The notes under the pieces: generated by a model
What the model was told of the DNA's origin: nothing
Databases searched by the model: none
Seen by the model: the letters and a program-made list of their open reading frames with translations, nothing else
Translations under genes and position numbers: made by a program
Shown here: one piece after another, positions 1,365 to 23,286 of the stretch
How positions within the stretch are numbered: the first letter of the stretch is position 1
How the letters are laid out: the number at the start of each line of letters is the position of its first letter
From: an uncultured Bdellovibrionales bacterium
Lineage (GTDB): Bacteria; Patescibacteriota; Minisyncoccia; Moranbacterales; UBA1568
Direction: 5' to 3'
Length of the DNA stretch: 39,517 nt
Assembly: GCA_964500865.1 (NCBI GenBank)
Contig: CAZCQJ010000003.1
Coordinates: forward strand, 33,812-73,328

Positions 1365-2354
1365 ATGATAACTTCACCCCTCAACTACAAAATTCCTTTC
1401 GCGCTCGACGGTAAGCGCCTCGATATTGCTGCCCGCAAAATCATTGAGGCAGAACTTGGCCCGGTGAAGCGCGAGTTCATTCAGGCCGCCTTTGCTGCTG
1501 GCACGCTTTTGTATGCCGGCGCCCCTGCCGAGGCCAGTCACCGTGTGGAACGCAGTAAAAAACTGACCCTCACCCCGGACTTCTTAAACTCCCTCCACGC
1601 CGACCAAACCGAGCGTACCGTACCAGAAGGTCCAGAGCCAACTGTTATCTCTGAGCACGAAGACTTTATCGTCCTCAATAAGCCGAGTGGCTGGCTCACG
1701 CACCCTGTGGCGAACTCAACCCGCGAAGTAACCCTTTTGGACTGGGCCCGCACTCATTTTGCCACCGAGGAGCTTTTCTTAGTGCACCGCCTCGACCGTA
1801 ACACCTCTGGCGTCATCCTTTTGGCCAAGAGCACTGATACCGAAGAAGCCCTGCGAGACCTTTTCCAGGCCCGCGACATCCACAAAACCTACGTGGCCCT
1901 CGTCGAAGGGAACCTAGCCGAAGAATCTGGCATCGTAAATGCCCCTCTCCGCCGTAAAAAAGGCTCATTTAAGCGTATTTCTGGTACCACTAAGTGGAAG
2001 GAAGGCGACGGAGCCCTCCGCGAAGCCGAGACCGCCTACCGTGTCATTGGCCGCTTCCCTGGCCACGATATCCTTTTATTAGAGCCAAAAACCGGAAGAA
2101 CCCACCAAATCCGCTCTCACATGAAGTACCTCGGACACCCTATCGTGGGCGATGTTCTCTATGGCAGCAAAGCAGCCTCTTTGGGCCGCCAGTTTCTCCA
2201 TGCTAAAAATATCGCTTTTCTCTACTCTGGAAAAAAGTACAGCTTTGCTGCTCCTCTGCCAGAAACCCTGGCCCTGTACCTCAAAACCCTTGACGGAGTT
2301 TCATTTCTTCGCTATGATGATGAAGCCTTACAGAGCCTCGCAGTAGCGCTATAA
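1365..2354 (+). CDS. RluA-family (RluD-like) 23S rRNA pseudouridine synthase
   Basis: HRLDRNTSGVILLAKS catalytic-Asp motif, TGRTHQIRSH motif, S4-like N-terminus. Start moved to ATG 1365. Confidence 0.85.
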   Translation: MITSPLNYKIPFALDGKRLDIAARKIIEAELGPVKREFIQAAFAAGTLLYAGAPAEASHRVERSKKLTLTPDFLNSLHADQTERTVPEGPEPTVISEHEDFIVLNKPSGWLTHPVANSTREVTLLDWARTHFATEELFLVHRLDRNTSGVILLAKSTDTEEALRDLFQARDIHKTYVALVEGNLAEESGIVNAPLRRKKGSFKRISGTTKWKEGDGALREAETAYRVIGRFPGHDILLLEPKTGRTHQIRSHMKYLGHPIVGDVLYGSKAASLGRQFLHAKNIAFLYSGKKYSFAAPLPETLALYLKTLDGVSFLRYDDEALQSLAVAL

Positions 2355-2386
2355 GAGGCTCATTTTTTGTTTACATTAAGACGGCT

Positions 2387-2884
2387 ATGAATCAGAAACT
2401 TATCGCTTTTAATAAAACGCAGCAGAAGGATATGAATATCCCAGAACTGCGCGCAGGAGACGTTATCAAGGTATACCGTCGTATTAAAGAAGGAGCAAAG
2501 CAGCGTACCCAGATGTTTCAGGGTATGGTAATCGCCATCAACGGCAAGCAGAGCTCATCTCCTTCTATGACTATCCGTAAGGTATCTTCTGGAGTAGGCG
2601 TAGAACTTATTTTGCCTTTGTACAGCCCACAGATCGAAAAGATTGAATTTGTGAAGCGTACTCGTGCTCGTCGCAGCAAGTTGTACTTCGTTCGTGACAA
2701 GTCTGTGAAGGTCCTCAGCAAGAAGCTTAAGGAAATTCCTTTGGCAGCCAGCGTTATGGCTCTTTTGTCAGCCAAGAAGGCCGAGAAAGACGCTGCAGAA
2801 CAGGCCGCCGCAGAAGCAGAGGCTACAGCAACCGAAGAAGTAGCCGAAGTTGCTACAGAAGAAGTTACCGAAACGGCCGCCTAA
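2387..2884 (+). CDS. rplS: 50S ribosomal protein L19 with Ala/Glu-rich C-terminal tail
   Basis: RAGDVIKVYRRIKEG..RTQMFQGMVIA..IRK.SSGVGVE..PLYSP.IEKIEF..R..ARRSKLYF.R is canonical L19. The tail is AEKDAAEQAAAEAEATATEEVAEVATEEVTETAA. Confidence 0.95.
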   Translation: MNQKLIAFNKTQQKDMNIPELRAGDVIKVYRRIKEGAKQRTQMFQGMVIAINGKQSSSPSMTIRKVSSGVGVELILPLYSPQIEKIEFVKRTRARRSKLYFVRDKSVKVLSKKLKEIPLAASVMALLSAKKAEKDAAEQAAAEAEATATEEVAEVATEEVTETAA

Positions 2885-2903
2885 GGCCCTTTCGGTTTCT
2901 TTT
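2867..2903 (+). terminator. Rho-independent terminator of rplS
   Basis: ACCGAAA-c-GGCC / GGCC-c-TTTCGGT hairpin (2867-2896) with the stop codon in the loop, followed by TTCTTTT. Confidence 0.6.
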
Positions 2904-2954
2904 AACGCTTAGAAGAGCTATATTGCCTTCTCTCACGTTCTGTTGTAATTTTAG

Positions 2955-3148
2955 ATATATGCCCAGGTGGTGCAAAGTGACAGATAGCGGTAGACATGCC
3001 GCCTTGCGGTAGAGTATGCTGATTAAAGTCAGAGGAAAGATTAACAATATATGCCCAGGTGGTGCAAAAAACTCTTAGCGGTAGACACACGTGTCTCGCA
3101 ACGATATAATGAGATAACCTTGGTAGGTATAGGTGATTAACAATATAT
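2955..3148 (+). repeat. Two degenerate tandem copies (period 92 and 96 nt) of the tRNA-Leu(GAG) 5' part plus its upstream ATATAT leader
   Basis: GCCCAGGTGGTG occurs at 2961, 3053 and 3149. All three are preceded by (a)tatat and contain GGTAGACA. Only the third copy folds as a tRNA. Confidence 0.8.
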
Positions 3149-3232
3149 GCCCAGGTGGTGGAACTGGTAGACACGCAGCCTTGAGGTGGCTGTGCGGTAA
3201 AACGCGTGGAGGTTCAAGTCCTCTCTTGGGCA
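3149..3232 (+). tRNA. tRNA-Leu(GAG)
   Basis: Hand fold: acceptor GCCCAGG/CTTGGGC, anticodon stem CAGCC/GGCTG, loop TTGAGGT, long variable arm, T-arm GGAGG-TTCAAGT-CCTCT, discriminator A. Confidence 0.9.
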
Positions 3233-3294
3233 CAATGCAGAAAAGAAAAACTGTGGTATACTATTTTCTGCAACGGATAGATGATTAAAAATAT

Positions 3295-3368
3295 GCACGC
3301 TTAGCTCAGTTGGTTAGAGCACCTCGTTTACACCGAGGGGGTCCAAGGTTCGAGTCCTTGAGCGTGCA
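3295..3368 (+). tRNA. tRNA-Val(UAC)
   Basis: Acceptor GCACGCT/AGCGTGC, anticodon stem CCTCG/CGAGG, loop TTTACAC, T-loop TTCGAGT. Confidence 0.9.
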
Positions 3369-3418
3369 CAGATGTGTATAAGTGGGGTTTATACAAGAAT
3401 AGACACATCGGAGTGCCG

Positions 3419-3731
3419 GCCGAGGTAGCTCAGTGGTAGAGCAGAGGACTGAATTTCGGTCCCTCTCATAGTGATATGGGATGAGAAAAATCGGGTGAAT
3501 TCGGGGAAACCTACGTTCAGATATTCTGAATATGGCAATCTCGAGCCAACTCCTAAAGGGCAATATGGTTTTAGGAAAGGTGTAGAGACTAGTAAGTGAG
3601 TCCCAACAATACTCTTACAAAAGCGCCCGACTTCTTAGTAAAGAAGATGAGATAGTCCAATCCTTGGGGAAACTCAAGTAAGTGCGTAAAGGAAAATCCT
3701 TGTGTCGGCAGTTCGATCCTGCCCCTCGGCA
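3419..3731 (+). tRNA. tRNA-Phe(GAA) interrupted by a 241-nt group I intron in the anticodon loop (exons 3419-3450 and 3692-3731)
   Basis: The joined exons GCCGAGGTAGCTCAGTGGTAGAGCAGAGGACT + GAAAATCCTTGTGTCGGCAGTTCGATCCTGCCCCTCGGCA give a perfect cloverleaf close to E. coli tRNA-Phe: acceptor GCCGAGG/CCTCGGC, loop CTGAAAA. Confidence 0.9.
3451..3691 (+). ncRNA. Group I (IC3-like) self-splicing intron, no internal ORF
   Basis: The 5' exon ends in U, and GGACU pairs with the internal guide GGUCC (3458-3462), giving the U-G wobble of P1. The intron ends in G (3691). Core strings AAUUCGGGGAAACCUA, UAUGGCAAUCUCGAGCCAA and AAGGUGUAGAGACUAG match the Azoarcus/cyanobacterial tRNA-intron core as I recall it. 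Confidence 0.85.
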
Positions 3732-3777
3732 CAATAATGAACCCATGGTATACTGATAATATCATGGGTTTTGTTTT

Positions 3778-4470
3778 ATGAATAAAAAAGAGCAGGCAGT
3801 TAAACTTAGACAATTTGGGCTCAGCTATTCTCAGATTCAAAGCGAATTAGGTATTTCAAAAAGCACCCTCAGTCTTTGGCTAAAAACAATAGCCCTTTCT
3901 GATGAAGCCCAAGAAAAAATCAACAAGCGCGTCAATAATACTTCTCGAAAAGCTTTGATTCTCCGCAATAAAGCTCGATCGAGTGTTGTCATGAAAGAGC
4001 ATGGTGTTATTAGAAAAGAAGCTGCCAAAGAGTTCGTTCTTTATTTTCAAGATCCACTCTTTATTGCTGGAATATCCCTCTACTGGGCCGAAGGTTACAA
4101 AAAGGGTGCTTCTGGGAGTCGTTGGAAAAGTATAGATCTTGCCAATTCTGATCCTCAAATGATTCTCTTCATGGTTCATTTCTTTAAAAAGTACTTGGGT
4201 GTATCTTTGGAAAAAATGAAGATCCAAATTATTGCTCATGACAACATAGACATAGATGCATCTGTTAGGTATTGGTCTCAACTCACCGGGATACCATCGG
4301 CACAATTCATAAAAACCTCTGTTCTTAATAGAGAAAGGACTTCAAAAAACCCACGAAAACATTCCTTGACTCATGGCACTATTCACGTTAGGATAAACGA
4401 TGTCAAGCTCTTTTTTCGTCTTATTGGCTGGCTCGATGGATTACAAGATTTCTTAAAAAAGAGCGTTTAA
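3778..4470 (+). CDS. HTH-domain protein with LAGLIDADG-like core (possible free-standing homing endonuclease)
   Basis: The N-terminus LRQFGLSYSQIQSELGISKSTLSLWLK is a resolvase/sigma-r4-type HTH. The middle segment FIAGISLYWAEGYK resembles a LAGLIDADG motif followed by an alpha/beta core. The gene starts 47 nt after the intron-containing tRNA. Confidence 0.4.
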   Translation: MNKKEQAVKLRQFGLSYSQIQSELGISKSTLSLWLKTIALSDEAQEKINKRVNNTSRKALILRNKARSSVVMKEHGVIRKEAAKEFVLYFQDPLFIAGISLYWAEGYKKGASGSRWKSIDLANSDPQMILFMVHFFKKYLGVSLEKMKIQIIAHDNIDIDASVRYWSQLTGIPSAQFIKTSVLNRERTSKNPRKHSLTHGTIHVRINDVKLFFRLIGWLDGLQDFLKKSV

Positions 4471-4474
4471 AATC

Positions 4475-4547
4475 GGGACTGTAGCTCAGGGGTTAGAGCG
4501 CGCGGCTCATAACCGCTTGGTCGTTGGTTCGATTCCAACCAGTCCCA
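4475..4547 (+). tRNA. tRNA(CAU): elongator Met or Ile2 (lysidine); not initiator
   Basis: Acceptor GGGACTG/CAGTCCC with a paired 1-72, loop CTCATAA, T-arm GTTGG-TTCGATT-CCAAC. No GGG/CCC at the base of the anticodon stem. Confidence 0.85.
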
Positions 4548-4585
4548 CAAAGGACCCCTAAGAATGAATATTTATTGTGGTCTTA

Positions 4586-4614
4586 TTGACTTAGGTAAGC
4601 CTGTTTGCTAAACT
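4586..4614 (+). promoter_or_regulatory. Sigma70-like promoter TTGACT-17-TAAACT for tRNA-Gly
   Basis: TTGACT at 4586-4591, 17-nt spacer, TAAACT at 4609-4614. The tRNA starts at 4628. Confidence 0.45.
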
Positions 4615-4627
4615 ATTTTAGTAATTA

Positions 4628-4702
4628 GCGAGTATCGTATAATGGTTATTACACGTCCTTGCCAAGGATGAGATAGGGGTTCGATTCCCCTTACCCGCTC
4701 CA
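4628..4702 (+). tRNA. tRNA-Gly(GCC), CCA encoded
   Basis: Loop TTGCCAA, T-arm AGGGG-TTCGATT-CCCCT, 3' end ...CCCGCTCCA. One A-C mismatch in the acceptor stem. Confidence 0.8.
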
Positions 4703-4801
4703 AGTCAACATAAAGGAAGGCCCCTAGAGGGTCTTTTTTGATACTCTAAAAAAGTAATGCCTCCTGTGATACACTATCAGCAGAAGTGAGCATCTCATAC
4801 T

Positions 4802-4954
4802 ATGAAGGTTGCTATTGTTGGGACAGGATTTCTTGGAGAACAAATCTACATCGATATTAAGGATCGCTGCGAGGAAGTCTTACTCACTCATAGCAGCAAT
4901 CCTAAATATCCCCATTCCAAAACTCACATTAAATTACTGATAATCTCTATTTAA
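4802..4954 (+). pseudogene. 50-codon remnant of a Rossmann-fold (NAD-dependent epimerase/reductase-like) gene
   Basis: Own translation MKVAIVGTGFLGEQIYIDIKDRCEEVLLTHSSNPKYPHSKTHIKLLIISI*. It carries only the G-x-G-x-x-G beta-alpha-beta start. Confidence 0.3.
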
Positions 4955-4958
4955 CTAT

Positions 4959-5591
4959 ATGGAAGACAAAAAGTCTCAACTTACTCATCAGTACAATGAA
5001 ACTATTGAAGCCTATCGTTTCATGGGAAGAAAGTATCTTGATAATATTGCACTACTAACACCGGGCCACTTTTATGAATTTATTAACTATCTACCAAAAG
5101 GAGGATCTGTTTTAGAGATTGGCTGCGCGGGCGGTCGGGATGCAAGAAAACTAGCTGATGCAGGCTTTCTTGTAACTGGCGTCGACACTGTTGACATATT
5201 TATTGATGAAGCAAAGAAACTTGTCCCTGAAGGAGAGTTCCAGGTCAAAAGTGTACTCGAGTTAAATTACACAGAGCAATTTGATGGGGTGTATGCAATG
5301 GCGGTGTTACTCCACCTAACAAAAGAGGATGTTCCGAAAGCAATCAGTGTCCTACATAGAGCACTAAAGCCCCATGGGAAAATATTTATAGCCGTAAAAC
5401 AAGGTACTGGTACCGCCTACGTCACCGACAAGCTCTCTGATCAGAAACGACTATTTACGTACTTTTCTGAACAAGAAATTGATGAACTTTTAAACAATCA
5501 TGGGTTTCATACTATAGGAAAGTGGGTGGTACCGGACGATGCCGGACGAGAAGATACCATATGGATCCGAATTATTGCTGAAAAAGTTTAA
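4959..5591 (+). CDS. Class I SAM-dependent methyltransferase
   Basis: Motif I VLEIGCAGGRDARKLA, acidic loop TGVD, motif post-II GVYAMAVLLHL. Confidence 0.85.
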   Translation: MEDKKSQLTHQYNETIEAYRFMGRKYLDNIALLTPGHFYEFINYLPKGGSVLEIGCAGGRDARKLADAGFLVTGVDTVDIFIDEAKKLVPEGEFQVKSVLELNYTEQFDGVYAMAVLLHLTKEDVPKAISVLHRALKPHGKIFIAVKQGTGTAYVTDKLSDQKRLFTYFSEQEIDELLNNHGFHTIGKWVVPDDAGREDTIWIRIIAEKV

Positions 5592-5636
5592 TCTGAGTAC
5601 TAGGAATCTCGCTCCAAGTAGCTCTACTAGATAAAC

Positions 5637-5666
5637 AAAACCGCCCCTCCCAAGGGTCGGTTTTTT
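5637..5666 (+). terminator. Rho-independent terminator
   Basis: AAAACCG-CCC / GGG-t-CGGTTTT hairpin followed by a T-run. Confidence 0.6.
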
Positions 5667-5771
5667 GGCATCTTTTGAAAAATCACTACAAAAAGCACCA
5701 AGATACCCACAAATACCCCCTTCCAAACAACAGTATTTGCTTTATTTAAGCCATAAAGTTCATATTTAATC

Positions 5772-5800
5772 TTGACAGAATCTGAAAATATTGCTATAAT
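5772..5800 (+). promoter_or_regulatory. Consensus sigma70 promoter TTGACA-17-TATAAT
   Basis: TTGACA at 5772-5777, 17-nt spacer, TATAAT at 5795-5800. About 80-nt 5' UTR before the ATG at 5887. Confidence 0.65.
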
Positions 5801-5886
5801 GGTGGGTTAACAATAAGAAGTCTCTACTTCCGTTGTTGACCGATTGTGTCTCTCGGGGCCCAGTCGCTAATCTGTAAACGCACTCT

Positions 5887-6354
5887 ATGCGTTTCAAAAT
5901 TGTAGCGATTATAGCAGTTTTTGTGGGTTATACAGCTTTAACCACAGGAACTGCCGCAGCAAGTACGTTAGACAAGGCTTTGTGGGTACCCGTAGCCAAG
6001 CCGGCTACCACCTATACTGCCCTGAATAACCCCTTGCTTACCGACCAGGCGTCGGTACAGGTAACCAAAACTACTTTTACGGCTAACTTGTCGGCGTATA
6101 CCGCCGCTGCCGATGAATGTGGTAAATCAGATGGTATTACTGCCTCTGGTAAAAAGGTTACTCCCAAGCGTACGTTGGCTTGTCCAAAGAGTTATGCCAT
6201 GGGGACAAAGGTGTATATCGAAGGAATGGGTGAATATACTTGTGAAGACCGTGGTGGAGCCATCAAGGGAAACAAGTTTGACATCTACGTAGCTACCAAA
6301 GCAGAAGCATTTGCTTTTGGTCGTCAGAACCTCTCGGTAACCGTGATTCAATAA
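5887..6354 (+). CDS. Secreted 3D-domain (MltA/YocH-like) cell-wall protein
   Basis: Signal peptide, then SAYTAAADECGKSDGITASGKKV....LACP...MGTKVYIEGMGEYTCEDRGGAIKGNKFDIY, the three conserved Asp region of 3D domains. Confidence 0.8.
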   Translation: MRFKIVAIIAVFVGYTALTTGTAAASTLDKALWVPVAKPATTYTALNNPLLTDQASVQVTKTTFTANLSAYTAAADECGKSDGITASGKKVTPKRTLACPKSYAMGTKVYIEGMGEYTCEDRGGAIKGNKFDIYVATKAEAFAFGRQNLSVTVIQ

Positions 6355-6371
6355 CAAAAGAAAAGAAGGAA

Positions 6372-6400
6372 GCCTCTGGGAAACCAGGGGCTTTTTGTTT
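6372..6400 (+). terminator. Rho-independent terminator
   Basis: GCCTCTGG-GAAA-CCAGGGGC followed by TTTTTGTTT. Confidence 0.65.
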
Positions 6401-6449
6401 GACTCAAGCCCCCCGTTTTGCTAGGCTAGAGAGGCACTTTGAGGATATA

Positions 6450-6520
6450 GGTCCGATGGCCGAGTGGTTAGGCAGAGGTCTGCAAAACCTTGCACAGCAG
6501 TTCGATTCTGCTTCGGACCT
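6450..6520 (+). tRNA. tRNA-Cys(GCA)
   Basis: Acceptor GGTCCGA/TCGGACC, loop CTGCAAA, T-arm AGCAG-TTCGATT-CTGCT, discriminator U. Confidence 0.9.
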
Positions 6521-6537
6521 CATAGTTAGATAAGTGA

Positions 6538-6618
6538 GGGGCGGTGGTGGAATGGTATACACGCGACACTTAAAATGTTGTGCCTTACGGCTTGAGGGTT
6601 CGAGTCCCTCCCGCCCTA
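6538..6618 (+). tRNA. tRNA-Leu(UAA)
   Basis: Acceptor GGGGCGG/CCGCCCT (G1-U72), loop CTTAAAA, long variable arm, T-arm GAGGG-TTCGAGT-CCCTC. Confidence 0.85.
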
Positions 6619-6628
6619 CAAAAAACTT

Positions 6629-6985
6629 ATGCTACACTGGGATATTTACGAAATTACCTCTGAGAAACATTCTCTAAACGGGGTCATGCTCCGTGGACGT
6701 TTGCGTAAATTTTCCGAAGAACATTCACTTGATTTTTTAGTAGAAAATACTGAGGATAAACCAAATGGCGTCCGCTTTGCGGTACTTGCCGGCCAAGACT
6801 CCACTATTCTTATAGGATACCTTACGAGTATCATTCCTGACGCTGCAGTTACCTTGGTTTTACAAAGCGCTACCAATCCAGTTTTATCGAAACTCAAAGT
6901 AAACCAAGCAGACCGCTATATCCTTCAGAACTATGTCTCCTCAAGAAATATCTTATCCTATTATTGGAATGAGTCCGGGAAATAG
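6629..6985 (+). CDS. Hypothetical protein (weak acylphosphatase-like pattern), overlaps the CDPS start by 53 nt
   Basis: 118-aa ORF starting 10 nt after tRNA-Leu. GVMLRGRLRKFSEEHSLDFLVENTEDKPNGVRF loosely resembles acylphosphatase 'G.VQGV.FR......lgl.G.V.N..dG.V'. Confidence 0.35.
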   Translation: MLHWDIYEITSEKHSLNGVMLRGRLRKFSEEHSLDFLVENTEDKPNGVRFAVLAGQDSTILIGYLTSIIPDAAVTLVLQSATNPVLSKLKVNQADRYILQNYVSSRNILSYYWNESGK

Positions 6986-7571
6986 CTACTTCAAAAAAGA
7001 AACGGTTGTTTTCCTTTTGGAAAAAGTTACTAAAGACTTTGGAAGGGCTAGCGTGCTTATTCCTGATATTCCCGCTATTACTACCTATGTAGCTCTCGGT
7101 TACAGTGAGAGTCGCGCTCGAAAAGACAAAGCCATCCCTAAAGGAAATGCTCTCCGTAATAAAGTAAGCGCGGCCATGCAGGAAAATGCATTAGATGACG
7201 ACCTCGTACGCATTTTTGACTGGGCATCAGAAATTGAACCGAATATACTCTACCAAGAAAAACTCGCCTCTATTAAAAAGCTTTACTCGGAGAACAACTC
7301 ATTTCAAGAAGCTATTCGTTCTGCCACCGAAGAAGTTCTTCTGAGTTCTAAAAAACATATTGATAACCTAGAGAAGGCCGTAAGTATTGCTACACACTAC
7401 ATTCTTTCTGAATTTGCCTGCTTAGAGTTCTTGCCGAAGTATCTCGGCGTTGAAAAGGTAGTTTATATATATCACAAATCCTGGCTCGTATACGAAGATT
7501 ACATTGCTGGAAAATTTGATGGTGTTCCTAAAAATCATCTAGCATTCCTGATTATCAAGAAAGTAAGCTAA
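6933..7571 (+). CDS. tRNA-dependent cyclodipeptide synthase (CDPS), NYH-type
   Basis: IIGMSPGNSYF matches AlbC IGISAGNSYF (catalytic Ser, Asn). HYILSEFACLEF matches NYVLAEAPLF (Tyr, Glu). VYIYHKS matches LCYHID (Tyr-His). The size of 212 aa is typical. Confidence 0.8.
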   Translation: MSPQEISYPIIGMSPGNSYFKKETVVFLLEKVTKDFGRASVLIPDIPAITTYVALGYSESRARKDKAIPKGNALRNKVSAAMQENALDDDLVRIFDWASEIEPNILYQEKLASIKKLYSENNSFQEAIRSATEEVLLSSKKHIDNLEKAVSIATHYILSEFACLEFLPKYLGVEKVVYIYHKSWLVYEDYIAGKFDGVPKNHLAFLIIKKVS

Positions 7572-7590
7572 GACTACCTGACTGCTCTCG

Positions 7591-8367
7591 CTAAAAATAC
7601 TTTTCGATTTTCTGTAAGGCCGTGCTGGCCTTTTTTTGTGAGCGAATAATTTTGAGTGCGAATCGCCCTCTTTGGCTTGGTAGCTGCGGATCAATATTTT
7701 GGCTCGTCAGATTCTCAACGAGCGTTTCGTTTACTTTTTTGTCTAATGAAGCCTCAAAGATCCAGTCCCGCAGTATATTCTTGTACTCCCACTCCTCCTG
7801 GTGCAAAGGATTTTTATCAAACAAAATCTCGTACCCAGAGGCGATATGCTTTTTCCCCTCGGTTTTGTCGATGGCCAAGGGGTGCGTAATAACCATACGC
7901 TGAACCCGCTTTTGTTTACCTACCCACAGAGCATCTGTTTGGGGGCGGAACAAGTTAAACCAGTCATGCGGAATCACAGAATAGACTGGGTATTCCGATG
8001 GAATACTTTTTTCTAAGTACAAAAAGCTTTCGGTCCAGTAGAGGTCGAGTTCCTGAAGGGTCCGAAACCGAAGCGTGAGCGACTCTCCTTCGCGGAGCGT
8101 CGTAAAACTGTAGGGCCGAGAAAGCGCGCCATAGACATTCGACAGTGCATTTACCCGGGCCACTTCGCTTTCGATAAACACCAAAGAAAGCTTTACTTGG
8201 CCTGCTTTTTCCAAAAGCACATCCTGACTCATAAGCTTACGGAGTGCCCTGTATACTGCCTGAAGAGAAGCTCCGGAGTGCTCTTGTGCTTCTTTGAGTA
8301 AAACCTCCTTTGCTACCGGCCCCGCTGCGAGGATTTCGAGAATAACTGATTCTGTTTGCTTCTTCAT
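7591..8367 (-). CDS. Winged-HTH domain protein, unknown C-terminal domain
   Basis: The N-terminus ILEILAAGPVAKEVLLKEAQEHSGASLQAVYRALRKLMSQDVL is MarR/ArsR-like wHTH. The remainder has no motif I recognise. Confidence 0.55.
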   Translation of the reverse strand: MKKQTESVILEILAAGPVAKEVLLKEAQEHSGASLQAVYRALRKLMSQDVLLEKAGQVKLSLVFIESEVARVNALSNVYGALSRPYSFTTLREGESLTLRFRTLQELDLYWTESFLYLEKSIPSEYPVYSVIPHDWFNLFRPQTDALWVGKQKRVQRMVITHPLAIDKTEGKKHIASGYEILFDKNPLHQEEWEYKNILRDWIFEASLDKKVNETLVENLTSQNIDPQLPSQRGRFALKIIRSQKKASTALQKIEKYF

Positions 8368-16084: not shown

Positions 16085-17365
16085 TTACTCCTCTTTTTTT
16101 AAAGGGTGCAACAAAAGGAATAAGGGGAGAAAATAGACCAATGCAAGGGCGTTCCCAAAAAGAGGAGTGTCGAAGATTCCGTAAGAAAATATCCCTACAA
16201 ATATTCCAGCCAGAACCTTTTCTTCTTCGGAAATATCTCTCCTCTCTAAAGAACGTATCGCTTGAATCCAGAAAAAAAGCATGCTTAACAAACCAAAGAG
16301 CCCTCCCTGGAGCCACAGTGCCAGCACTAAGTTATGCGGCTGAGGCACTGCCCATTCAAGATATGGCGGAAAAAGCGGTTGTAGATAAAGGTATTCTTGC
16401 TGAAAATTTCCCAGACCGATACCTATCACCGGATGTTCTACAATAAGTACTCCGGCACTGCGCCAAATCATCATACGCGAAGCAAATGATGAGCGAGCAT
16501 CTGTCTCTGTAAGAGTAACGAGCTTTTCCTGAAACGTAGCAAACATAAGGATCGCTACAATAAGCATACTCACAAGCAGTCCCCTTGGAGCTCTACATAC
16601 ATTCCCTAACTGGCGAATCCCCAAAAAGCTATACGTAAGAATACTTGCCAAAACAGCCGCAGAGCTCCCAGCAGAGCGTGTTAAAAAAATACCCATTGCT
16701 ACACTCAGAATCAGCGCGACAGCAGTTTGTCGTATCCAGAAAGTCGGGCGTGTTTTAAACATCCACAAGGAAAGCAGTACCCCCGGAAAAAGAAAAAAAC
16801 CAAGGAAGTTTGGGCTCGTAAATACGCCCTCAAGACGACCATCGAAAGTACGTATCCCCAGCACGAGTGCAGGGAGAGTTGCAAGCAAAACGCCGACAAT
16901 GCCCATTATCCAAATAACAAGCGCCTTTTTGTTTCGGCTACTGTCCGTCTGATATGCTACCGCAAAAAGAAGTGTGGCCACCATTGGAAGAATAATCCAT
17001 GATTTTAACAATCCCCAGGCAGTTGCCGACGGAGAAAAAAGTATTCCCAAAAGGGTGCTTAAAATAAAAAGGGCTACTCCTATAGCTACACTCCTCCTGT
17101 ATTCTTTTTGAATTATCCGATGACGACATACTAAGATGTACCCACTCAGTACAAGAAAAACACTATCCAATAGGTACACGGGGAGCGCCGGAAAAACACG
17201 ATTATTCGCAAGAGGAATAAGTAAAAATGCAATGAGCAAAAAACTATACGGTGTCTTGAGGAGTTGATTCCACATAAAGCAGGGCAAGAAGGGCCAGAAA
17301 AAGCGGAGTGATATGAACAGAGAAGAGGGGATTTTCAAAAAGTGACTGTGCAAAAAATAGTACAA
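16085..17365 (-). CDS. O-antigen ligase (Wzy_C) family membrane protein
   Basis: Polytopic membrane protein. LTRSAGSSAAVLASI, GIGLGNF and PHNLVLALWLQGG are Wzy_C-like. The start could be the internal Met at 17275. Confidence 0.7.
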   Translation of the reverse strand: MYYFLHSHFLKIPSSLFISLRFFWPFLPCFMWNQLLKTPYSFLLIAFLLIPLANNRVFPALPVYLLDSVFLVLSGYILVCRHRIIQKEYRRSVAIGVALFILSTLLGILFSPSATAWGLLKSWIILPMVATLLFAVAYQTDSSRNKKALVIWIMGIVGVLLATLPALVLGIRTFDGRLEGVFTSPNFLGFFLFPGVLLSLWMFKTRPTFWIRQTAVALILSVAMGIFLTRSAGSSAAVLASILTYSFLGIRQLGNVCRAPRGLLVSMLIVAILMFATFQEKLVTLTETDARSSFASRMMIWRSAGVLIVEHPVIGIGLGNFQQEYLYLQPLFPPYLEWAVPQPHNLVLALWLQGGLFGLLSMLFFWIQAIRSLERRDISEEEKVLAGIFVGIFSYGIFDTPLFGNALALVYFLPLFLLLHPLKKEE

Positions 17366-18497
17366 GACTTACCATAACCCAAGTACTAGAAGCTACTGGT
17401 AGTGTAGCAGACTTTTGGCGCTGCGCGAACACGGCTACAAGTAGACCGAGGAAAAGTATCAGTCCCACAAACCCGATTTCCACGGCAATATCAAAATACA
17501 TATTGTGCACATAGATTGGTTCTCGGAATTCGGCCGTCGGCTTTACAAGAAGCGGATAACTTCCCAAGCCAACGCCGGCGAATGGCATTACTTGAATATT
17601 TACTACTGCCTCCCGCAAAAGCCTCACTCGCTCACTCACTGATCCATCTTCTAACGAAAAGCTTGAAGCAAAGCGGCTCGCCACAGGGCTAAACATAAAT
17701 ACACTTACACCAAGAACAACAAATCCTGTACGGAGCGGTGTGACGTAACGAGTCAACAGGGAACGACTCTGCCACATGGCGTATACAGTTGCTATAATCA
17801 GACCAACGTAACCTGAGCGAGAGAAAGAAAGACCGAGCGCAGCAAACATCATGCTGCCAAACAACACCCTTTTCCAGAGCGCAAAACGACGACTCTGCCA
17901 CAAGACCAATGGCAACAACATGCCGACAAAATAGGCAAAAATATGCGGGTCAGGAAAAAATGCCGAGGCTCGTAGTAGAGTCACTCCGTGAATATTTACC
18001 AAAAGACTTGGGTACTCCGCGAGAGTGTTCCCGAGACCACCCCCAACAAAAAAGGCGAGTGTATCTACCCAGAAATGGAAAAGTTGACCGACAGGCAATA
18101 CTAATTGTAGCGAAAATTGAAAAAGCCCTATACCTGCTGCCAGTAGACCTGCAAAAAAAAGTGAGCGATACAGTATCAGACGTAGATATTGCTCACGAAA
18201 GACATCAACAAAAACTAAAAAAAGTGGGAAGATATTCCACCAAAAGGCTACCTTGCGTATGGCCCACATGGGATTTAGTGCCCAAAACACAGAAAGTGTC
18301 GCCCACAGTAAAAAGGCTGACCAAAAGAAGAGGACGGTTGGCTGTGGCAAAAAGAAGCGTCTCTGAATGAGATTTTTGGCCAACCAAAAAAGAATCCATG
18401 CCAATGCCAGTATACGTACCATGGGCACCCCCCAAAGGGCAAACCACACTGGCAGTAGAGCAAAGAAAAAAACTACGAACCACTTATGAACGACCAT
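17244..18497 (-). CDS. O-antigen ligase (Wzy_C) family membrane protein
   Basis: SFSRSGYVGLI, GVGLGSY, VHNMYFDIAVEIGF. Start set to ATG 18497 (MVVHKW). The track's longer N-terminus overlaps the GT2 gene. Confidence 0.75.
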   Translation of the reverse strand: MVVHKWFVVFFFALLPVWFALWGVPMVRILALAWILFWLAKNLIQRRFFLPQPTVLFFWSAFLLWATLSVFWALNPMWAIRKVAFWWNIFPLFLVFVDVFREQYLRLILYRSLFFAGLLAAGIGLFQFSLQLVLPVGQLFHFWVDTLAFFVGGGLGNTLAEYPSLLVNIHGVTLLRASAFFPDPHIFAYFVGMLLPLVLWQSRRFALWKRVLFGSMMFAALGLSFSRSGYVGLIIATVYAMWQSRSLLTRYVTPLRTGFVVLGVSVFMFSPVASRFASSFSLEDGSVSERVRLLREAVVNIQVMPFAGVGLGSYPLLVKPTAEFREPIYVHNMYFDIAVEIGFVGLILFLGLLVAVFAQRQKSATLPVASSTWVMVSLVLFFAQSLFENPLFSVHITPLFLALLALLYVESTPQDTV

Positions 18498-19278
18498 ACG
18501 GATAGAAAAATCGATATATAGCTTGCAATCCAATAAAGAGAGTGCGCGTAGTAGGGGACCAGTGCTTATGGAGGTACCGTCGAAGTGAGGTGTCATAGTA
18601 CTGTTTCTGAGAACGGCGTCCTGTGTGACTCTTCCCAGAAAAATGAGTGAGCGAATAGGCTGTTTCGTAATAAACCCGAGACCCGTTCCGGTTTGCCCGA
18701 AGACACAAATCCATATCCTCGAAGTAAAGAAAGAACTGCTCGTCAAAGCCGTTGAGTTGCCGGAAAAGATCCGCACGAATAGCAAAAGCGGCACCGCTGA
18801 CCCAGTCAACAAGACCTGCTGGTCTATAGCGTGTACGCCAGAAAACGCGTCGTAGAGAATTCTTAACTGTCAAAAAGGTGCCCGCACTAAAGGCTTCTGG
18901 GTTACCTTTTGATGTTCGCAAAGAAACACCTACTACACCAATAGCATTTTCTTTGTTAAAAAACTCTCTCAACCGCTGAAGAAAAGCTTCCTGCCAGCGA
19001 GTATCTGGATTCACAAAGAACAAGATATCTCCTGTTGCGAGCGTAGCCCCTCTGTTGGCAGCAGTCGCGAAACCACCGTTGTCATTTGCCTGATCCACTA
19101 ATATCTGCGGAAATTCACTCTTCATAAGCTCAAGAGCAGACGCCTCATCTCGGTCATTGTTAACAATAATGACTTCAAAAAAAGCCTCTTTTTCATATAA
19201 AAAAAGGCTTTTCAGCGATGCTCTCAGCAGCTGACTACTGCGATAGTTTACGAAAATACAACTTATCTTTGGAACCAT
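18484..19278 (-). CDS. Family 2 glycosyltransferase
   Basis: VNYRS...IIVNNDRDE...NGGFATAANRG......FVNPD. Confidence 0.8.
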   Translation of the reverse strand: MVPKISCIFVNYRSSQLLRASLKSLFLYEKEAFFEVIIVNNDRDEASALELMKSEFPQILVDQANDNGGFATAANRGATLATGDILFFVNPDTRWQEAFLQRLREFFNKENAIGVVGVSLRTSKGNPEAFSAGTFLTVKNSLRRVFWRTRYRPAGLVDWVSGAAFAIRADLFRQLNGFDEQFFLYFEDMDLCLRANRNGSRVYYETAYSLTHFSGKSHTGRRSQKQYYDTSLRRYLHKHWSPTTRTLFIGLQAIYRFFYPYGRS

Positions 19279-20116
19279 ACGTACGGAAGTAGTCTGTATA
19301 CGCCTGTTTTACGCTTGCAGCATCAGGAAGCCCCATCCAAACTTTCACGAAGTTCACAAGTCTTCGTATTATAACATACACACTAAGGTACGGTCGAAAA
19401 AGCACCGGGGTGTGCAGCGCAAAGAAAAGTAGTCCGCTCCTCACTACAAAGTACCACTTTTGGCTATTCTCAGAGCTTTTTTCCTGATGAATAACTCGTG
19501 CTGTAGGCACCACAAAAAGATCTACCTTCTTTTCTCTGGCTCGCCAAGAGAAATCGGCGTCTTCGTAGTACAAGAAAAACCGTTCATCAAGAAGGCCGAC
19601 TTTTTGCACTGCGCTCCTATGCAAAAAAAGTGCGCAGCCCGTCAAAAAGTCAGTCTTGTAGGGGATACTCCCTTCCGTCTGCCGTGCAGTATGCTCTACT
19701 CGCATCTGCCAAAAGTTAACTCGACCACCAGCAAACCACTCCTGCCCAACGGAATCAAGAATCAAGGGGCTCATCAGACAGGCTCCGTAAGATTTATGAG
19801 CAGCCAAAAGAGCAGGGAGCGTCCCTACTTCAACGGTGGCATCAGAGTTCATAAGCCACGTAAAGTCGTACTTCTCAGCAATACCAATATACAACCCCTC
19901 GTTCATACCGGCCGCGAAACCGCCATTTTCTAAACGAGCGAGAAAACGATATTCCGGAAACTGATTTTTTGCCTGCTGAAAAGAATCATCCGTAGAAGCG
20001 TTATCCACTACCAAAACATCTGCGCCCTGAACAAGCGTTACCCGCAAAGAGTTCAGGCAGCCCAAAAGGCAATCCCTACCATTGTAATTTAAAACGACTA
20101 TAAGTACGCGGGGCAT
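19235..20116 (-). CDS. Family 2 glycosyltransferase (rhamnosyltransferase-like)
   Basis: VVLNYNG...VVDNASTDDS...NGGFAAGMNEG......NSD...YYEDADFSWR. ATG at 20116. Confidence 0.8.
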   Translation of the reverse strand: MPRVLIVVLNYNGRDCLLGCLNSLRVTLVQGADVLVVDNASTDDSFQQAKNQFPEYRFLARLENGGFAAGMNEGLYIGIAEKYDFTWLMNSDATVEVGTLPALLAAHKSYGACLMSPLILDSVGQEWFAGGRVNFWQMRVEHTARQTEGSIPYKTDFLTGCALFLHRSAVQKVGLLDERFFLYYEDADFSWRAREKKVDLFVVPTARVIHQEKSSENSQKWYFVVRSGLLFFALHTPVLFRPYLSVYVIIRRLVNFVKVWMGLPDAASVKQAYTDYFRTYGSKDKLYFRKLSQ

Positions 20117-20150
20117 AAGACAATGTGGGGAATCCCTGGGTTCCTTCGCT

Positions 20151-21569
20151 TTACGAAGCAAAGAAAAGAGCCCGAACTTCCTTGAGATTAATCGCACGAA
20201 GAATTGCCAACGATATGACGTATGTTACCGAGGCAGTTGTTCCCGCCACAAAAAATGACTCGTGCTTTAGAAGTACTAAGGCTATTATCATGGCTCCACC
20301 AGCTAAGAATATTCGCCCCGCATGTTCAAATGAGGGTACGTATTTTACATGACGCCATACTAAAATACCCGTTGTAATAGCAACGCAAAGCTCTGTGAAT
20401 AACGATGTATAAGCGGCTCCCATGTAGGAAAACCGAGGAATAACGACAATATTTGCCAAAATGTTCAGGAGAGCAATGACAAATAGAGCTTTCATGAGCT
20501 GCTTCTGCGCATTGCTTACGATAAGAAGCATATTAAAGTAGTTCCCAAAAAAGATACATGCTAGGGCAAAAATAAGAACTCGTAATACCGGGACAGATTC
20601 CATAAAGCCACTGCCGCTGATAATCTGAATGATAAACGGAGCTAAAAACCACGTCCCAATAACTAGCGGCGTAATAAGCACTAAGAATACCTTCGAGGTT
20701 TTGCCTGCAATTTCCTCAAAATACGCCCGATTAGTGTAGATATATCGTGATAATAGGGGAAGAATAAGTCCCGAAAGCATGGCTGGAAAGAAAATGAGGT
20801 TCTCGATTATTTTATAGGCCACATTATAAATACCGACTTCGGCGCTCGACTGCCAAATAGAAAGGAGAATGGTGTCAAATTTAAAGTAAGCAAAAGTAAT
20901 GATGGCCGTAGCACCCAGCGGCAAAGAGTCCCGAAGAAAGGCTCTCCAAAAAGGGACGTCAAACGAGAGCGAGAAATGAACATACTGGCGACTTAAAAAA
21001 TATGCAAGCGAAGCGTTAAACAAGAAGGCTGCCACAATAGTAGCTACAATAAACAAGAATCCTCGCTCCTCTTGAATAAAAAACCAAATAAGGCCTACCT
21101 GAAGGATCTTCCCTCCAAGCTCGATCAGGGCTATTTTATCCATGCTTAAACGCTTTTGAAAAATGCCATTCAAAATGTATGAAAAGGTAGAGAATACCGT
21201 CGCAAGAGCAGCAAAAAAGATACCTACCTTAAGCTCAAAAGCGTATCCAGAAAAATAGAGCATTATTGGCACCAGCATAACCAACAGAGACGAAAAGGTG
21301 AGGCGCAAAGCGAGCACCCGCCCTAAAATAAACTCTTCATCGGCACCCTCGCGAGAAATTTCACGAGCTGTTACTTGTGCTAGTCCGAAGTCAGTAACCG
21401 CCGAAAAAAGCGCGAAAAAGGCCAATACTGTAGCATACATACCGAATCCTTCCTGGCCCAGATATTCCGTAATAAGACGCACCGAAAAAAGCGCCAGAAC
21501 CACTGTCGAAAATATCTTAATGGTGGAATTTAAAGCAACATTATAGGCTAACCGCTTTGCAACAGCCAT
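20151..21569 (-). CDS. Wzx-like polysaccharide flippase (MOP superfamily)
   Basis: 472 aa with about 12-14 TM segments. The N-terminus AYNVALNSTIKIFSTVV....ITEYLGQEGFGMY is typical of polysaccharide biosynthesis protein family members. Confidence 0.75.
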   Translation of the reverse strand: MAVAKRLAYNVALNSTIKIFSTVVLALFSVRLITEYLGQEGFGMYATVLAFFALFSAVTDFGLAQVTAREISREGADEEFILGRVLALRLTFSSLLVMLVPIMLYFSGYAFELKVGIFFAALATVFSTFSYILNGIFQKRLSMDKIALIELGGKILQVGLIWFFIQEERGFLFIVATIVAAFLFNASLAYFLSRQYVHFSLSFDVPFWRAFLRDSLPLGATAIITFAYFKFDTILLSIWQSSAEVGIYNVAYKIIENLIFFPAMLSGLILPLLSRYIYTNRAYFEEIAGKTSKVFLVLITPLVIGTWFLAPFIIQIISGSGFMESVPVLRVLIFALACIFFGNYFNMLLIVSNAQKQLMKALFVIALLNILANIVVIPRFSYMGAAYTSLFTELCVAITTGILVWRHVKYVPSFEHAGRIFLAGGAMIIALVLLKHESFFVAGTTASVTYVISLAILRAINLKEVRALFFAS

Positions 21570-21605: not shown

Positions 21606-22070
21606 TTACCCTTTTCGAGAGACACGCACAACTCGCTGACTTCCAAAACTCTCACTTTCCGTGGCATAGCCTCCGTGGTTTAAGAAAAATTCGTGTACCA
21701 AACGACGCTCATACGCATCCATTGGCCACAGCAAAAGACTTTCATCCACTAATTTTTCCTCAACGTAGGCCAACACTCTCTTGGTAAAGATCTCATCTTT
21801 TTCGGTACGGTAGCCGTTAACATCCAGACGGTAGCGGAATGGCGAGTCTTCCTTGCGAACCACTGCGTTTATAAGCGCCTGAAGGGCGGCTAAGCTTGCT
21901 CCCTGCTTACCAATAACATAGCGCTGTTCTGTTGGAATAGTTACCGAAACAAGCATCTGTTTTCCTGGAATAACCTCGCTGAAGCTTATTTGTGCGTCGT
22001 GAATGGCAAGCGCCTGAAAAAAGTTACCGAGGAGGGTTCGAATGTGCTGCTGGGCTTCCATAGGGGACAT
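21606..22070 (-). CDS. jag: Jag-like KH + R3H RNA-binding protein
   Basis: VIGKQGASLAALQALIN (KH) and ERRLVHEFFLNHGGYATESESFGSQRVVRVS (R3H). Located downstream of yidC. Confidence 0.8.
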   Translation of the reverse strand: MSPMEAQQHIRTLLGNFFQALAIHDAQISFSEVIPGKQMLVSVTIPTEQRYVIGKQGASLAALQALINAVVRKEDSPFRYRLDVNGYRTEKDEIFTKRVLAYVEEKLVDESLLLWPMDAYERRLVHEFFLNHGGYATESESFGSQRVVRVSRKG

Positions 22071-22079
22071 ATTATCTTT

Positions 22080-22901
22080 TTACGGGGTTGGAACCACTGG
22101 AAAATCATGCTCTTTGACATTCTTTACCGGAACCAGTTTCTGCTGCAGGAGCATTAATAGGGTAGAGGCAAGCCAGTAGAGCGTCAGGGCTGCTGGAAAG
22201 GTAACTCCCACAAAGAGGGTAATGGCAGGCAGCATGTAGAGCATCTGCTTATTCATAATGGTGGCAAAATCAGGCTCACCATCCTTATTTGTAGCTGTTT
22301 TCTGCGGCTGCGCCCCAATAATAGACTTCATCTGGAAGTACTGCGCAATAGCCGTAACGATAGCCAAGAATATACTTGGAGTTGTAAGATTGAGTGTTCC
22401 GAGAAAAAGATGGTTAATTGGGCCAGGGTTAGCCACAAACGCATAGAGACTCTCGGTATTTGCCGAGAAGTTATTATGAGCAATGTTAATAATAGACCTA
22501 TAAATAGCCAAGAGCAACACAAGAGAGACTATTGCCGGCAAACAACCCGAAACTGGATTTACGCCATGCTCCTTATAGAGCCCCATCATCACCTTGGCCT
22601 GCTCCTCTTTATTATTCTTGTGTTTTTCTTGAGCCTGCTTAATTTTTGGCTGCAATTCCTGCAGCTTTTTCTGCGAAGAAATCTGTTTTTGGTAAATAGG
22701 GTACAGCAAAAGGCGGATAATGAGTGTGGTTAAAATAATAGCCACACCAAAATCCTTCAGAGGAACAATATTGTACAAGAAAATAAGTACATTGTAGATC
22801 GGTTCGTAGGCGAGGGTTTCGTAGAGCTGAATCATAAGGAAATCTTTATTATCGTCTGAAGTGAGCGAAACAAGAATATTTTTTGTTTCCGAACGAAGCA
22901 A
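22080..22901 (-). CDS. yidC: Membrane protein insertase YidC (short form)
   Basis: GVAIILTTLIIRLLLYP...KMQ.LQPKI..........EQAKVMMGLYKEHGVNPVSGCLP. The start may be the Met at 22835. Confidence 0.9.
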   Translation of the reverse strand: MLRSETKNILVSLTSDDNKDFLMIQLYETLAYEPIYNVLIFLYNIVPLKDFGVAIILTTLIIRLLLYPIYQKQISSQKKLQELQPKIKQAQEKHKNNKEEQAKVMMGLYKEHGVNPVSGCLPAIVSLVLLLAIYRSIINIAHNNFSANTESLYAFVANPGPINHLFLGTLNLTTPSIFLAIVTAIAQYFQMKSIIGAQPQKTATNKDGEPDFATIMNKQMLYMLPAITLFVGVTFPAALTLYWLASTLLMLLQQKLVPVKNVKEHDFPVVPTP

Positions 22902-22923: not shown

Positions 22924-23286
22924 TTATTTATGGCTTGTTTTATAGCCAGTATACACCTTTTTTACAAAACTTTCTACGGCTTTTTGTAGCTCATCTTGGT
23001 TTGGTGTCAGTTTTTGACTTGGGAGGTAAAAAACCACATCAAATGGTGCCTGCAAAAAAGTCTCGTACTTTTGTAATTCACCAGAAATACGCCGTTTTAA
23101 GCGATTTCTCTCAACAGCCTTCCGAAGGAACTTTTTACCAAAAGAAAAAGCCGCTCGCATGGGCAGCTCTTTATTTGGTTGCGCTAAAAATTTGACAGAG
23201 AAAAATGGCGTATGCCAAACCCCTCCTTTTTGGAACACCACGTTTATTTCCTCGTTTTTCTTTAGGCGGTGCTTCCTGGCTAACAT
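22924..23286 (-). CDS. rnpA: RNase P protein component
   Basis: MLARKHRLKKNEEINVVFQKG.......F.......SFGKKFLRKAVERNRLKRRI. Sits between rpmH and yidC. Confidence 0.9.
   Translation of the reverse strand: MLARKHRLKKNEEINVVFQKGGVWHTPFFSVKFLAQPNKELPMRAAFSFGKKFLRKAVERNRLKRRISGELQKYETFLQAPFDVVFYLPSQKLTPNQDELQKAVESFVKKVYTGYKTSHK

Follow-up and report, generated by a model that had tools for sequence, protein, structure and literature searches.

The closest solved and characterised relatives of the gene described here are tRNA-dependent cyclodipeptide synthases (CDPSs) of the NYH subfamily, which is defined by N40, Y202 and H203 in the numbering of the enzyme AlbC (PMC5816076). Five NYH structures, from Firmicutes or Actinobacteria, were used for comparison: YvmC from B. 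licheniformis (3oqh), BtCDPS (7azu), Shae-CDPS (6ez3), AlbC (3oqv) and Rv2275 (2x9q). We examined an open reading frame (ORF) of 212 aa in a 39,517-nucleotide stretch of contig CAZCQJ010000003.1 (assembly GCA_964500865.1), which is called the window below and comes from a candidate phyla radiation (CPR) bacterium. The ORF belongs to the same Pfam and TIGR family as the five enzymes, and has the same fold (template modelling score, TM, 0.78-0.83), the same Ser/Tyr/Glu/Tyr set, the N-Y-H signature and a basic helix alpha4; however, it shares just 17-23% identity with them and its N-terminus is about 20 residues shorter. We hold with good confidence that it encodes a predicted catalytically competent, stand-alone NYH CDPS of a distinct, mainly Patescibacteria clade, probably co-transcribed with tRNAs and vertically inherited as an accessory gene.

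CDPSs have been reported from CPR bacteria before. Some dozen CDPSs of XYP type from CPR metagenomes are named in the 2018 overview, and CDPS 90 (PcCDPS) of Parcubacteria RAAC4_OD1_1 makes cyclo(His-Pro) and cyclo(His-Glu) (PMC5816076); later work crystallised and engineered this enzyme (PMC7613923; PDB 7qaq-7qb8). Like the window protein, this active CDPS comes from a CPR bacterium, whereas it belongs to the XYP subfamily and has different pocket motifs (GAYAWELY/FEWKYTR). Four NYH CDPSs from CPR bacteria were also catalogued as "unclassified" (Gondry et al. 2018, Data Set 4, NYH sheet):

OGY85379.1, Kerfeldbacteria
OGI43181.1, Moranbacteria
OGZ44804.1, Ryanbacteria
OGY31047.1, Andersenbacteria

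OGY85379 and OGI43181 belong to the same clade as the window protein, with matching blocks IIGMSPGNSYF, DIPAISTY, HYLLSE and YIYHKNW. Their pockets (VGLAWFLY/TAVGKWT and IGFAWFLY/TGVGKWE) are near-identical to those of the window protein, which has P44 and C163 in place of A and F. Both have, at the C-terminus, an additional solute-binding ("ABC transporter") domain of some 250 aa, which the window protein lacks. According to the text of the 2018 overview, 99% of NYH enzymes belong to Actinobacteria, Firmicutes and Proteobacteria, so the CPR NYH clade was a footnote there. Full-text literature searches turned up no paper on the place of CDPSs in the biology of CPR or DPANN. The initial annotation of this DNA had set a CDPS in a seemingly minimal genome against the groups from which CDPSs are best known; the characterised RAAC4_OD1_1 enzyme and the catalogued OGY85379 and OGI43181 make such a find less surprising. 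The window enzyme is neither a new kind of enzyme nor the first CDPS from CPR bacteria, and is a new unfused member of a catalogued NYH clade. New in the present analysis are the wide spread of the clade (over CPR, DPANN and Obscuribacterales), its near-invariant first pocket, the fusion of about 50% of its members to a solute-binding domain, and a presence/absence polymorphism at a syntenic tRNA islet.

The gene was assigned with Pfam, NCBIfam, PDB, AlphaFold2 and Foldseek:

6933..7571, plus strand: CDPS gene, 212 aa, NYH subfamily, unfused

Its start is the first available start codon after the upstream stop. In profile hidden Markov model searches, the Pfam CDPS profile (PF16715), proposed as a check in the initial annotation, matched the ORF with E = 2.7e-28 and 99.7 bits against a cut-off of 27; the alignment spans residues 10-209 of the ORF and positions 21-219 of the 220 in the profile. 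TIGR04539, "tRNA-dependent cyclodipeptide synthase", matched with E = 6e-35 and 120.8 bits (cut-off 45), so both scores are 3-4 times the curated cut-offs. All significant sequence matches in PDB were CDPSs (YvmC, Rv2275, BtCDPS, P. gingivalis CDPS, Shae-CDPS and AlbC), and a profile of 26 clade members lifted the matches to NYH CDPS structures to E = 5e-19 to 2e-11.

The catalytic landmarks that had been read from the sequence by eye (G-x-S-x-G-N-S-Y-F, H-Y-x-L-x-E and a late Y-H pair) are all present, as G12-M-S14-P-G-N17-S-Y-F, H155-Y156-I-L-S-E160 and Y180-H181. Residues were mapped through HMMER alignments to YvmC, Rv2275, BtCDPS and Shae-CDPS and through a MAFFT alignment with AlbC, the AlbC sequence being identical to chain 3oqv_A. 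The resulting equivalences, in which the catalytic Ser, Tyr and Glu fall where a proper alignment should put them, are:

S14 of the window protein: S37 of AlbC
N17 of the window protein: N40 of AlbC
Y156 of the window protein: Y178 of AlbC
E160 of the window protein: E182 of AlbC
Y180 of the window protein: Y202 of AlbC
H181 of the window protein: H203 of AlbC

An AlphaFold2 model built from the alignment reached a mean predicted local distance difference test score (pLDDT) of 95.1 and a predicted TM-score (pTM) of 0.90. When it was compared with PDB through Foldseek, the best 47 matches were all CDPS structures, led by the NYH enzymes YvmC, Shae-CDPS, BtCDPS and AlbC (TM 0.81-0.83). Tyrosyl-tRNA synthetases ranked next after the CDPSs, as expected for the CDPS fold, and the model shows the Rossmann-type fold related to class Ic aminoacyl-tRNA synthetases. 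Helix alpha4 contains 7 Lys/Arg among 27 residues. The XYP structures 5ocd, 5mlp and 7qaq scored below the NYH enzymes, and the XYP subfamily could be ruled out, with His181 and not Pro at position 203 and a TM of 0.57-0.60 to the Parcubacteria XYP enzyme. The full catalytic set together with the N-Y-H trio, as aligned and modelled here, identifies the ORF as an NYH-subfamily CDPS. The AlbC-type NYH assignment made in the initial annotation thus agrees with the evidence at the level of profiles, of the structure model and of single residues. No second CDPS and no solute-binding domain was found in the window.

A protein search with the window CDPS returned 126 relatives at 40-67% identity, mostly unnamed metagenome proteins; the relatives named "tRNA-dependent cyclodipeptide synthase" at NCBI come from Andersenbacteria, Nomurabacteria, Pacebacteria and Patescibacteria. 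Scanning of species-representative genomes gave 75 clade loci. Most of them are labelled as Patescibacteria (Uhr-, Nomura-, Kerfeld-, Moran-, Berkel-, Falkow-, Taylor-, Andersen- and Peribacteria, and Paceibacteria), about 10 are from DPANN archaea (Woesearchaeota, Nanoarchaeota and Micrarchaeota), about 10 are from Obscuribacterales or Melainabacteria, and a few are labelled Dependentiae, Bdellovibrionota, Bryobacterales or proteobacteria. The S-N-Y-E-Y-H signature was kept in 67 of the 68 full-length members. In the 26-sequence alignment S14, N17, Y156 and E160 are invariant, and conservation is 90% or more for Y180 and H181.

Half of the clade loci (37/74) encode a fusion protein of about 470 aa, with the CDPS as its N-terminal and a family-3 solute-binding domain (PF00497) as its C-terminal half. 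This fusion appears as a mere remark in the 2018 catalogue (Gondry et al. 2018), and the domain may be an amino-acid-sensing regulatory domain. The fused loci fall within L002-L049 of our locus set, for example L004 (5019-6458), in whose sequence no signal peptide or membrane segment was seen by eye. Clustering of the four genes on either side in all loci revealed no gene family conserved beside the bacterial CDPSs. In 7/7 DPANN members examined (loci L059-L063, L065 and L067) the CDPS has, immediately upstream, a divergent gene for a regulator that consists of two winged-helix modules of Lrp/AsnC type and measures about 345 aa; apart from this double regulator, no strictly conserved neighbour was found in the clade.

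Two syntenic loci were compared with the window, one of which (L076) was found via the 258-aa protein encoded downstream of the window CDPS. The gene orders are:

Window, CDPS present: 3D-domain gene, tRNA-Cys, tRNA-Leu, ORF118, CDPS, 258-aa gene, three small ORFs, uracil-DNA glycosylase (UDG), DHH, RbfA
L001, CDPS present: 3D-domain gene, tRNA-Cys, tRNA-Leu, CDPS, UDG, DHH, RbfA
L076, CDPS absent: 3D-domain gene, tRNA-Cys, LAGLIDADG ORF, tRNA-Leu, ORF118 homologue, 258-aa homologue, UDG, DHH, RbfA

The L001 CDPS starts with an ATG 7 nt after tRNA-Leu and is 67% identical to the window CDPS, its flanking housekeeping proteins being 56-73% identical to those of the window; the flanking proteins of L076 are 67-75% identical. 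The simplest reading is that the CDPS was ancestral at this locus and that the L076 lineage lost it. On this reading the tRNA islet is variable and the CDPS one of its accessory genes, dispensable and vertically inherited at this locus in the lineage.

The missing gene at the L076 site might also be read to mean that the CDPS is cargo of a mobile island recently acquired beside tRNA-Leu, hence horizontal and not a trait of the lineage. The patchy spread of the clade over CPR, DPANN archaea, Obscuribacterales, Dependentiae and others would fit such cargo, and so would the homing-endonuclease-like ORFs and the group I intron found in the same tRNA islet. Through the whole clade, a same-strand tRNA lies within 330 bp upstream of 6/74 CDPS genes vs 12/761 other ORFs in the same loci (Fisher one-sided p = 0.003), with five sets of tRNAs (Leu/Cys, Gly/Arg, Ser, His and Gln) in the six loci. 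This enrichment is probably overstated, because the control set includes some spurious ORFs, and the adjacency is absent in 92% of members. We nevertheless consider recent acquisition unlikely, since L001 keeps the same order with a CDPS that has diverged as much as its flanking genes, and since no integrase or recombinase was present among the ORFs scanned around the CDPS. No GC anomaly was found either (0.42-0.46 around the CDPS vs 0.36-0.54 across the window). An integrative island at tRNA-Leu, considered separately, found no support, as att-like direct repeats around the locus were absent.

The position of the gene had been called notable in the initial annotation. This stands for the window itself, where two tRNAs lie directly upstream of the CDPS, but in the clade tRNA adjacency is a weak tendency and not a shared feature. 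It would fit either accessory genes settling beside tRNAs or co-transcription with them.

The elements upstream of the CDPS are as follows, the tRNAs being called by ARAGORN and tRNA-Cys also by Rfam:

5887-6354: 3D-domain gene, preceded by a perfect sigma-70-type promoter at 5772-5800
6367..6396, plus strand: hairpin terminator (-20.7 kcal/mol, z = -4.3, 0/200 shuffles as stable by RNA folding)
6450..6521, plus strand: tRNA-Cys(GCA), first gene of the probable tRNA-ORF118-CDPS unit
6538..6619, plus strand: tRNA-Leu(UAA), with 10 nt from its end to ORF118 and 313 nt to the CDPS start
6629..6985, plus strand: ORF118, a conserved small protein with 102 representative homologues

The terminator separates the 3D-domain gene from the tRNAs and the CDPS. 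Considering this strong terminator before tRNA-Cys and the 10 nt between tRNA-Leu and ORF118, we infer that tRNA-Cys, tRNA-Leu, ORF118 and the CDPS probably form one transcription unit.

Substrate pockets were read at the published positions, which are 33, 35, 65, 67, 119, 185, 186 and 200 for the first pocket (P1) and 152, 155, 156, 159, 204, 206 and 207 for the second (P2). The predicted P1 of the window CDPS consists of I10, G12, L42, P44, W97, C163, L164 and Y178 (IGLPWCLY), and the predicted P2 of A131, E134, V135, S138, K182, W184 and L185 (AEVSKWL). Position 119 was assigned to W97 by the HMMER alignment and the published motifs of clade members, MAFFT being one residue off; the same mapping reproduces the published motifs of OGY85379 and OGI43181. 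Over the 68 full-length clade members P1 is nearly invariant, [IV]-G-[MLF]-[AP]-W-F-[LM]-Y.

These pockets differ from those of AlbC (LGVVLLFL/MAVNITP) and of the cLL enzymes (LGLAFFFL/M.A.RWK). The cLL group was ruled out for the window enzyme, which shares with it only G35, L65, a basic residue at 204 and W206. The nearest published P1 motifs are those of the cPX group and of CDPS 84 from Allokutzneria albata, which makes cyclo(Phe-Ile). CDPS 84 has the closest P1 (LGLPWFLF), with the G-L-P-W core and L186 in common with the window enzyme, whereas its P2 is IRVTRSP and it is actinobacterial and on a different branch. The cPX motif, xG[LF]PW[LF]x[FY], resembles the window P1, although the clade is not close to the characterised members; the authors of the pocket scheme regard the P1 type of CDPS 84 and cPX as not a reliable predictor of specificity. 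The pocket prediction suggested in the initial annotation could thus be carried through for the residues, and it assigned the enzyme to no specificity group. The nearest pocket motifs belong to makers of cyclo(Phe-Ile), cyclo(Pro-X) or cyclo(Leu-X), and the window pockets have an aromatic and aliphatic character; this points to a product that is probably a hydrophobic cyclodipeptide, whose identity is not predictable from the pockets. It is probably unmodified, because no tailoring enzyme is conserved beside the CDPS gene.

We modelled the reaction on the AlbC mechanism as summarised in PMC5816076. A first aminoacyl-tRNA would dock with its aminoacyl group in P1 (I10/G12/L42/P44/W97/C163/L164/Y178), and the aminoacyl group would then move onto Ser14. 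A second aminoacyl-tRNA would donate its aminoacyl group via P2 (A131/E134/V135/S138/K182/W184/L185) to give a dipeptidyl-enzyme, from which intramolecular cyclisation of the dipeptidyl group would release a 2,5-diketopiperazine. Glu160 and Tyr156, the counterparts of AlbC E182 and Y178, presumably act in the acyl-transfer steps, and Tyr180 (AlbC Y202) presumably helps cyclisation.

Several points weigh against this reading of the gene as a working, co-transcribed CDPS. The distance from the solved and characterised enzymes is large, the N-terminal shortening is found clade-wide, and no defined specificity group in the published P1/P2 scheme matches the pocket motifs. No recognisable Shine-Dalgarno sequence precedes the CDPS ATG. 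As to the transcription unit, the stretch from the terminator to tRNA-Cys showed no consensus promoter, and the hairpin that follows the CDPS gene is not significant. The gene is also not essential, because the close relative L076 lacks it at the same locus. Finally, metagenomic CDPSs are often inactive in E. coli (PMC5816076).

This last point, together with the unusually short N-terminus and the lack of tailoring or export genes nearby, could mean that the CDPS fold was kept while cyclodipeptide synthesis was lost, leaving an inactive remnant or an enzyme for some other aminoacyl-tRNA-dependent acyl transfer. We consider such a loss very unlikely. The catalytic and subfamily residues are kept in all but one of the full-length clade members, P1 is near-invariant, and the high-confidence model superposes on active enzymes. 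Against four relatives, the proportion of nonsynonymous differences (pN) is low, 0.25-0.33, vs a saturated proportion of synonymous differences (pS) of 0.76-0.83, a pattern that fits long-term purifying selection.

For a competent CDPS in this host, the cost of the reaction deserves consideration. CPR bacteria are unable to make most amino acids, so diversion of charged tRNAs into a diketopiperazine would be costly, and this suggests that the molecule matters for CPR life on or with a host. On the specificity map of CDPSs, a large, coherent clade with a conserved pocket and frequent fusion is still blank, and it might lead to a small molecule that episymbionts use. The signal or weapon suggested in the initial annotation is speculation. 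We might go further and speculate that the clade, with its near-invariant P1 and its spread over ultra-small episymbionts of two domains (CPR bacteria and DPANN archaea) as well as Obscuribacterales, makes one specific conserved cyclodipeptide, possibly new for CDPSs, as a shared signal or effector towards hosts, with expression hard-wired to tRNA operons in some lineages; we regard this extension as rather doubtful.

The surroundings of the CDPS were largely as first described. tRNA-Cys and tRNA-Leu(UAA) lie directly upstream, with tRNA-Leu(GAG), Val, Met and Gly further upstream of tRNA-Cys by ARAGORN; the overlapping 118-aa ORF, the convergent winged-helix protein and the methyltransferase about 1.3 kb upstream are all there. 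As had also been noted, no oxidase or P450 was found near the CDPS, and the locus does not make up a CDPS-dependent biosynthetic cluster.

The ORF118 family, aligned from the 102 representatives collected with phmmer, has a core of about 100 aa ending in ...NPVLSKLKVNxExRYxL. The window copy has lost the usual stop of the family, and its 19-aa tail runs over the CDPS start, with an overlap of 53 nt. Neither Pfam nor PDB gave a match for the family. ORF118 was ruled out as a partner of the CDPS, since it occurs without a CDPS in L076 and in 0/73 of the other CDPS loci.

Downstream of the CDPS lies one convergent gene:

7591..8367, minus strand: 258-aa gene, convergent to the CDPS (AlphaFold2, Foldseek)

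The AlphaFold2 model of its product (pLDDT 79) has a winged helix at residues 5-60 and a C-terminal alpha/beta domain, with weak Foldseek matches to TrmB (3qph, 2f5t), so that on the model the protein is probably a transcription regulator. It was ruled out as a specific partner or tailoring enzyme, having 5 homologues, three examined contexts without a CDPS and a TrmB-like model. The exception is one distant homologue, a TrmB-like protein in Kerfeldbacteria locus L004 that overlaps the CDPS start by 4 nt. That locus (2292-7906) encodes a methyltransferase, a class I/II aminotransferase, the TrmB-like protein, the fusion of CDPS and solute-binding domain, and a convergent radical S-adenosylmethionine (SAM) protein, and is possibly a true biosynthetic cluster.

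The class I SAM methyltransferase of the window ends 1342 bp upstream of the CDPS, beyond another gene and two tRNAs. A tailoring role for it is unsupported: weak lookalikes occur within four genes of the CDPS in 4 other loci, and none in L001.

The tRNA-Phe that had been placed in the same islet exists as a split gene. tRNA-Phe(GAA), at 3419-3733 on the plus strand, carries in its anticodon loop a group I intron (Rfam RF00028, 75 bits, 3441-3679) some 240 nt long. Because the intron splits the gene it was missed by ARAGORN, which called it once the exons were joined. Just after it, a 230-aa ORF (3778-4470, plus strand) with an N-terminal helix-turn-helix and a LAGLIDADG-like "FIAGISLYWAEG" motif is possibly a free-standing homing endonuclease. 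Homologues of this ORF adjoin tRNA-adjacent CDPS genes in L039 (5016-5741) and L003 (1569-2120). The ORF between tRNA-Cys and tRNA-Leu of L076 (6170-6850, minus strand) matches Pfam LAGLIDADG_3. Selfish elements thus seem to use the tRNA islets as landing sites.

The window also contains a neighbourhood typical of a replication origin:

21606-22070, minus strand: jag-like gene
22080-22901, minus strand: yidC
22924-23286, minus strand: 120-aa ORF, possible rnpA
23594-25045: dnaA, after a gap of about 300 bp
25274-26398: dnaN

The presence of yidC, the jag-like gene, dnaA and dnaN places the window on the chromosome near the replication origin, and the cumulative GC skew has its minimum at about 24-25 kb. 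The closest named relatives of DnaA are from Patescibacteria, Moranbacteria/Moraniibacteriota and Minisyncoccota (64-69% identity), which supports a reduced genome of CPR type and agrees with the reduced, probably episymbiotic genome proposed at first. The two closest CDPS loci, L001 and L068, are labelled "uncultured Bdellovibrionales" in their records; these labels are doubtful, because L001 is syntenic with the window, whose DnaA is Patescibacteria-like. Next to the origin genes, a surface-polysaccharide block on the minus strand (16085-21569) encodes two membrane proteins resembling O-antigen ligases (Wzy_C), two glycosyltransferases of family 2 and a flippase-like Polysacc_synt protein.

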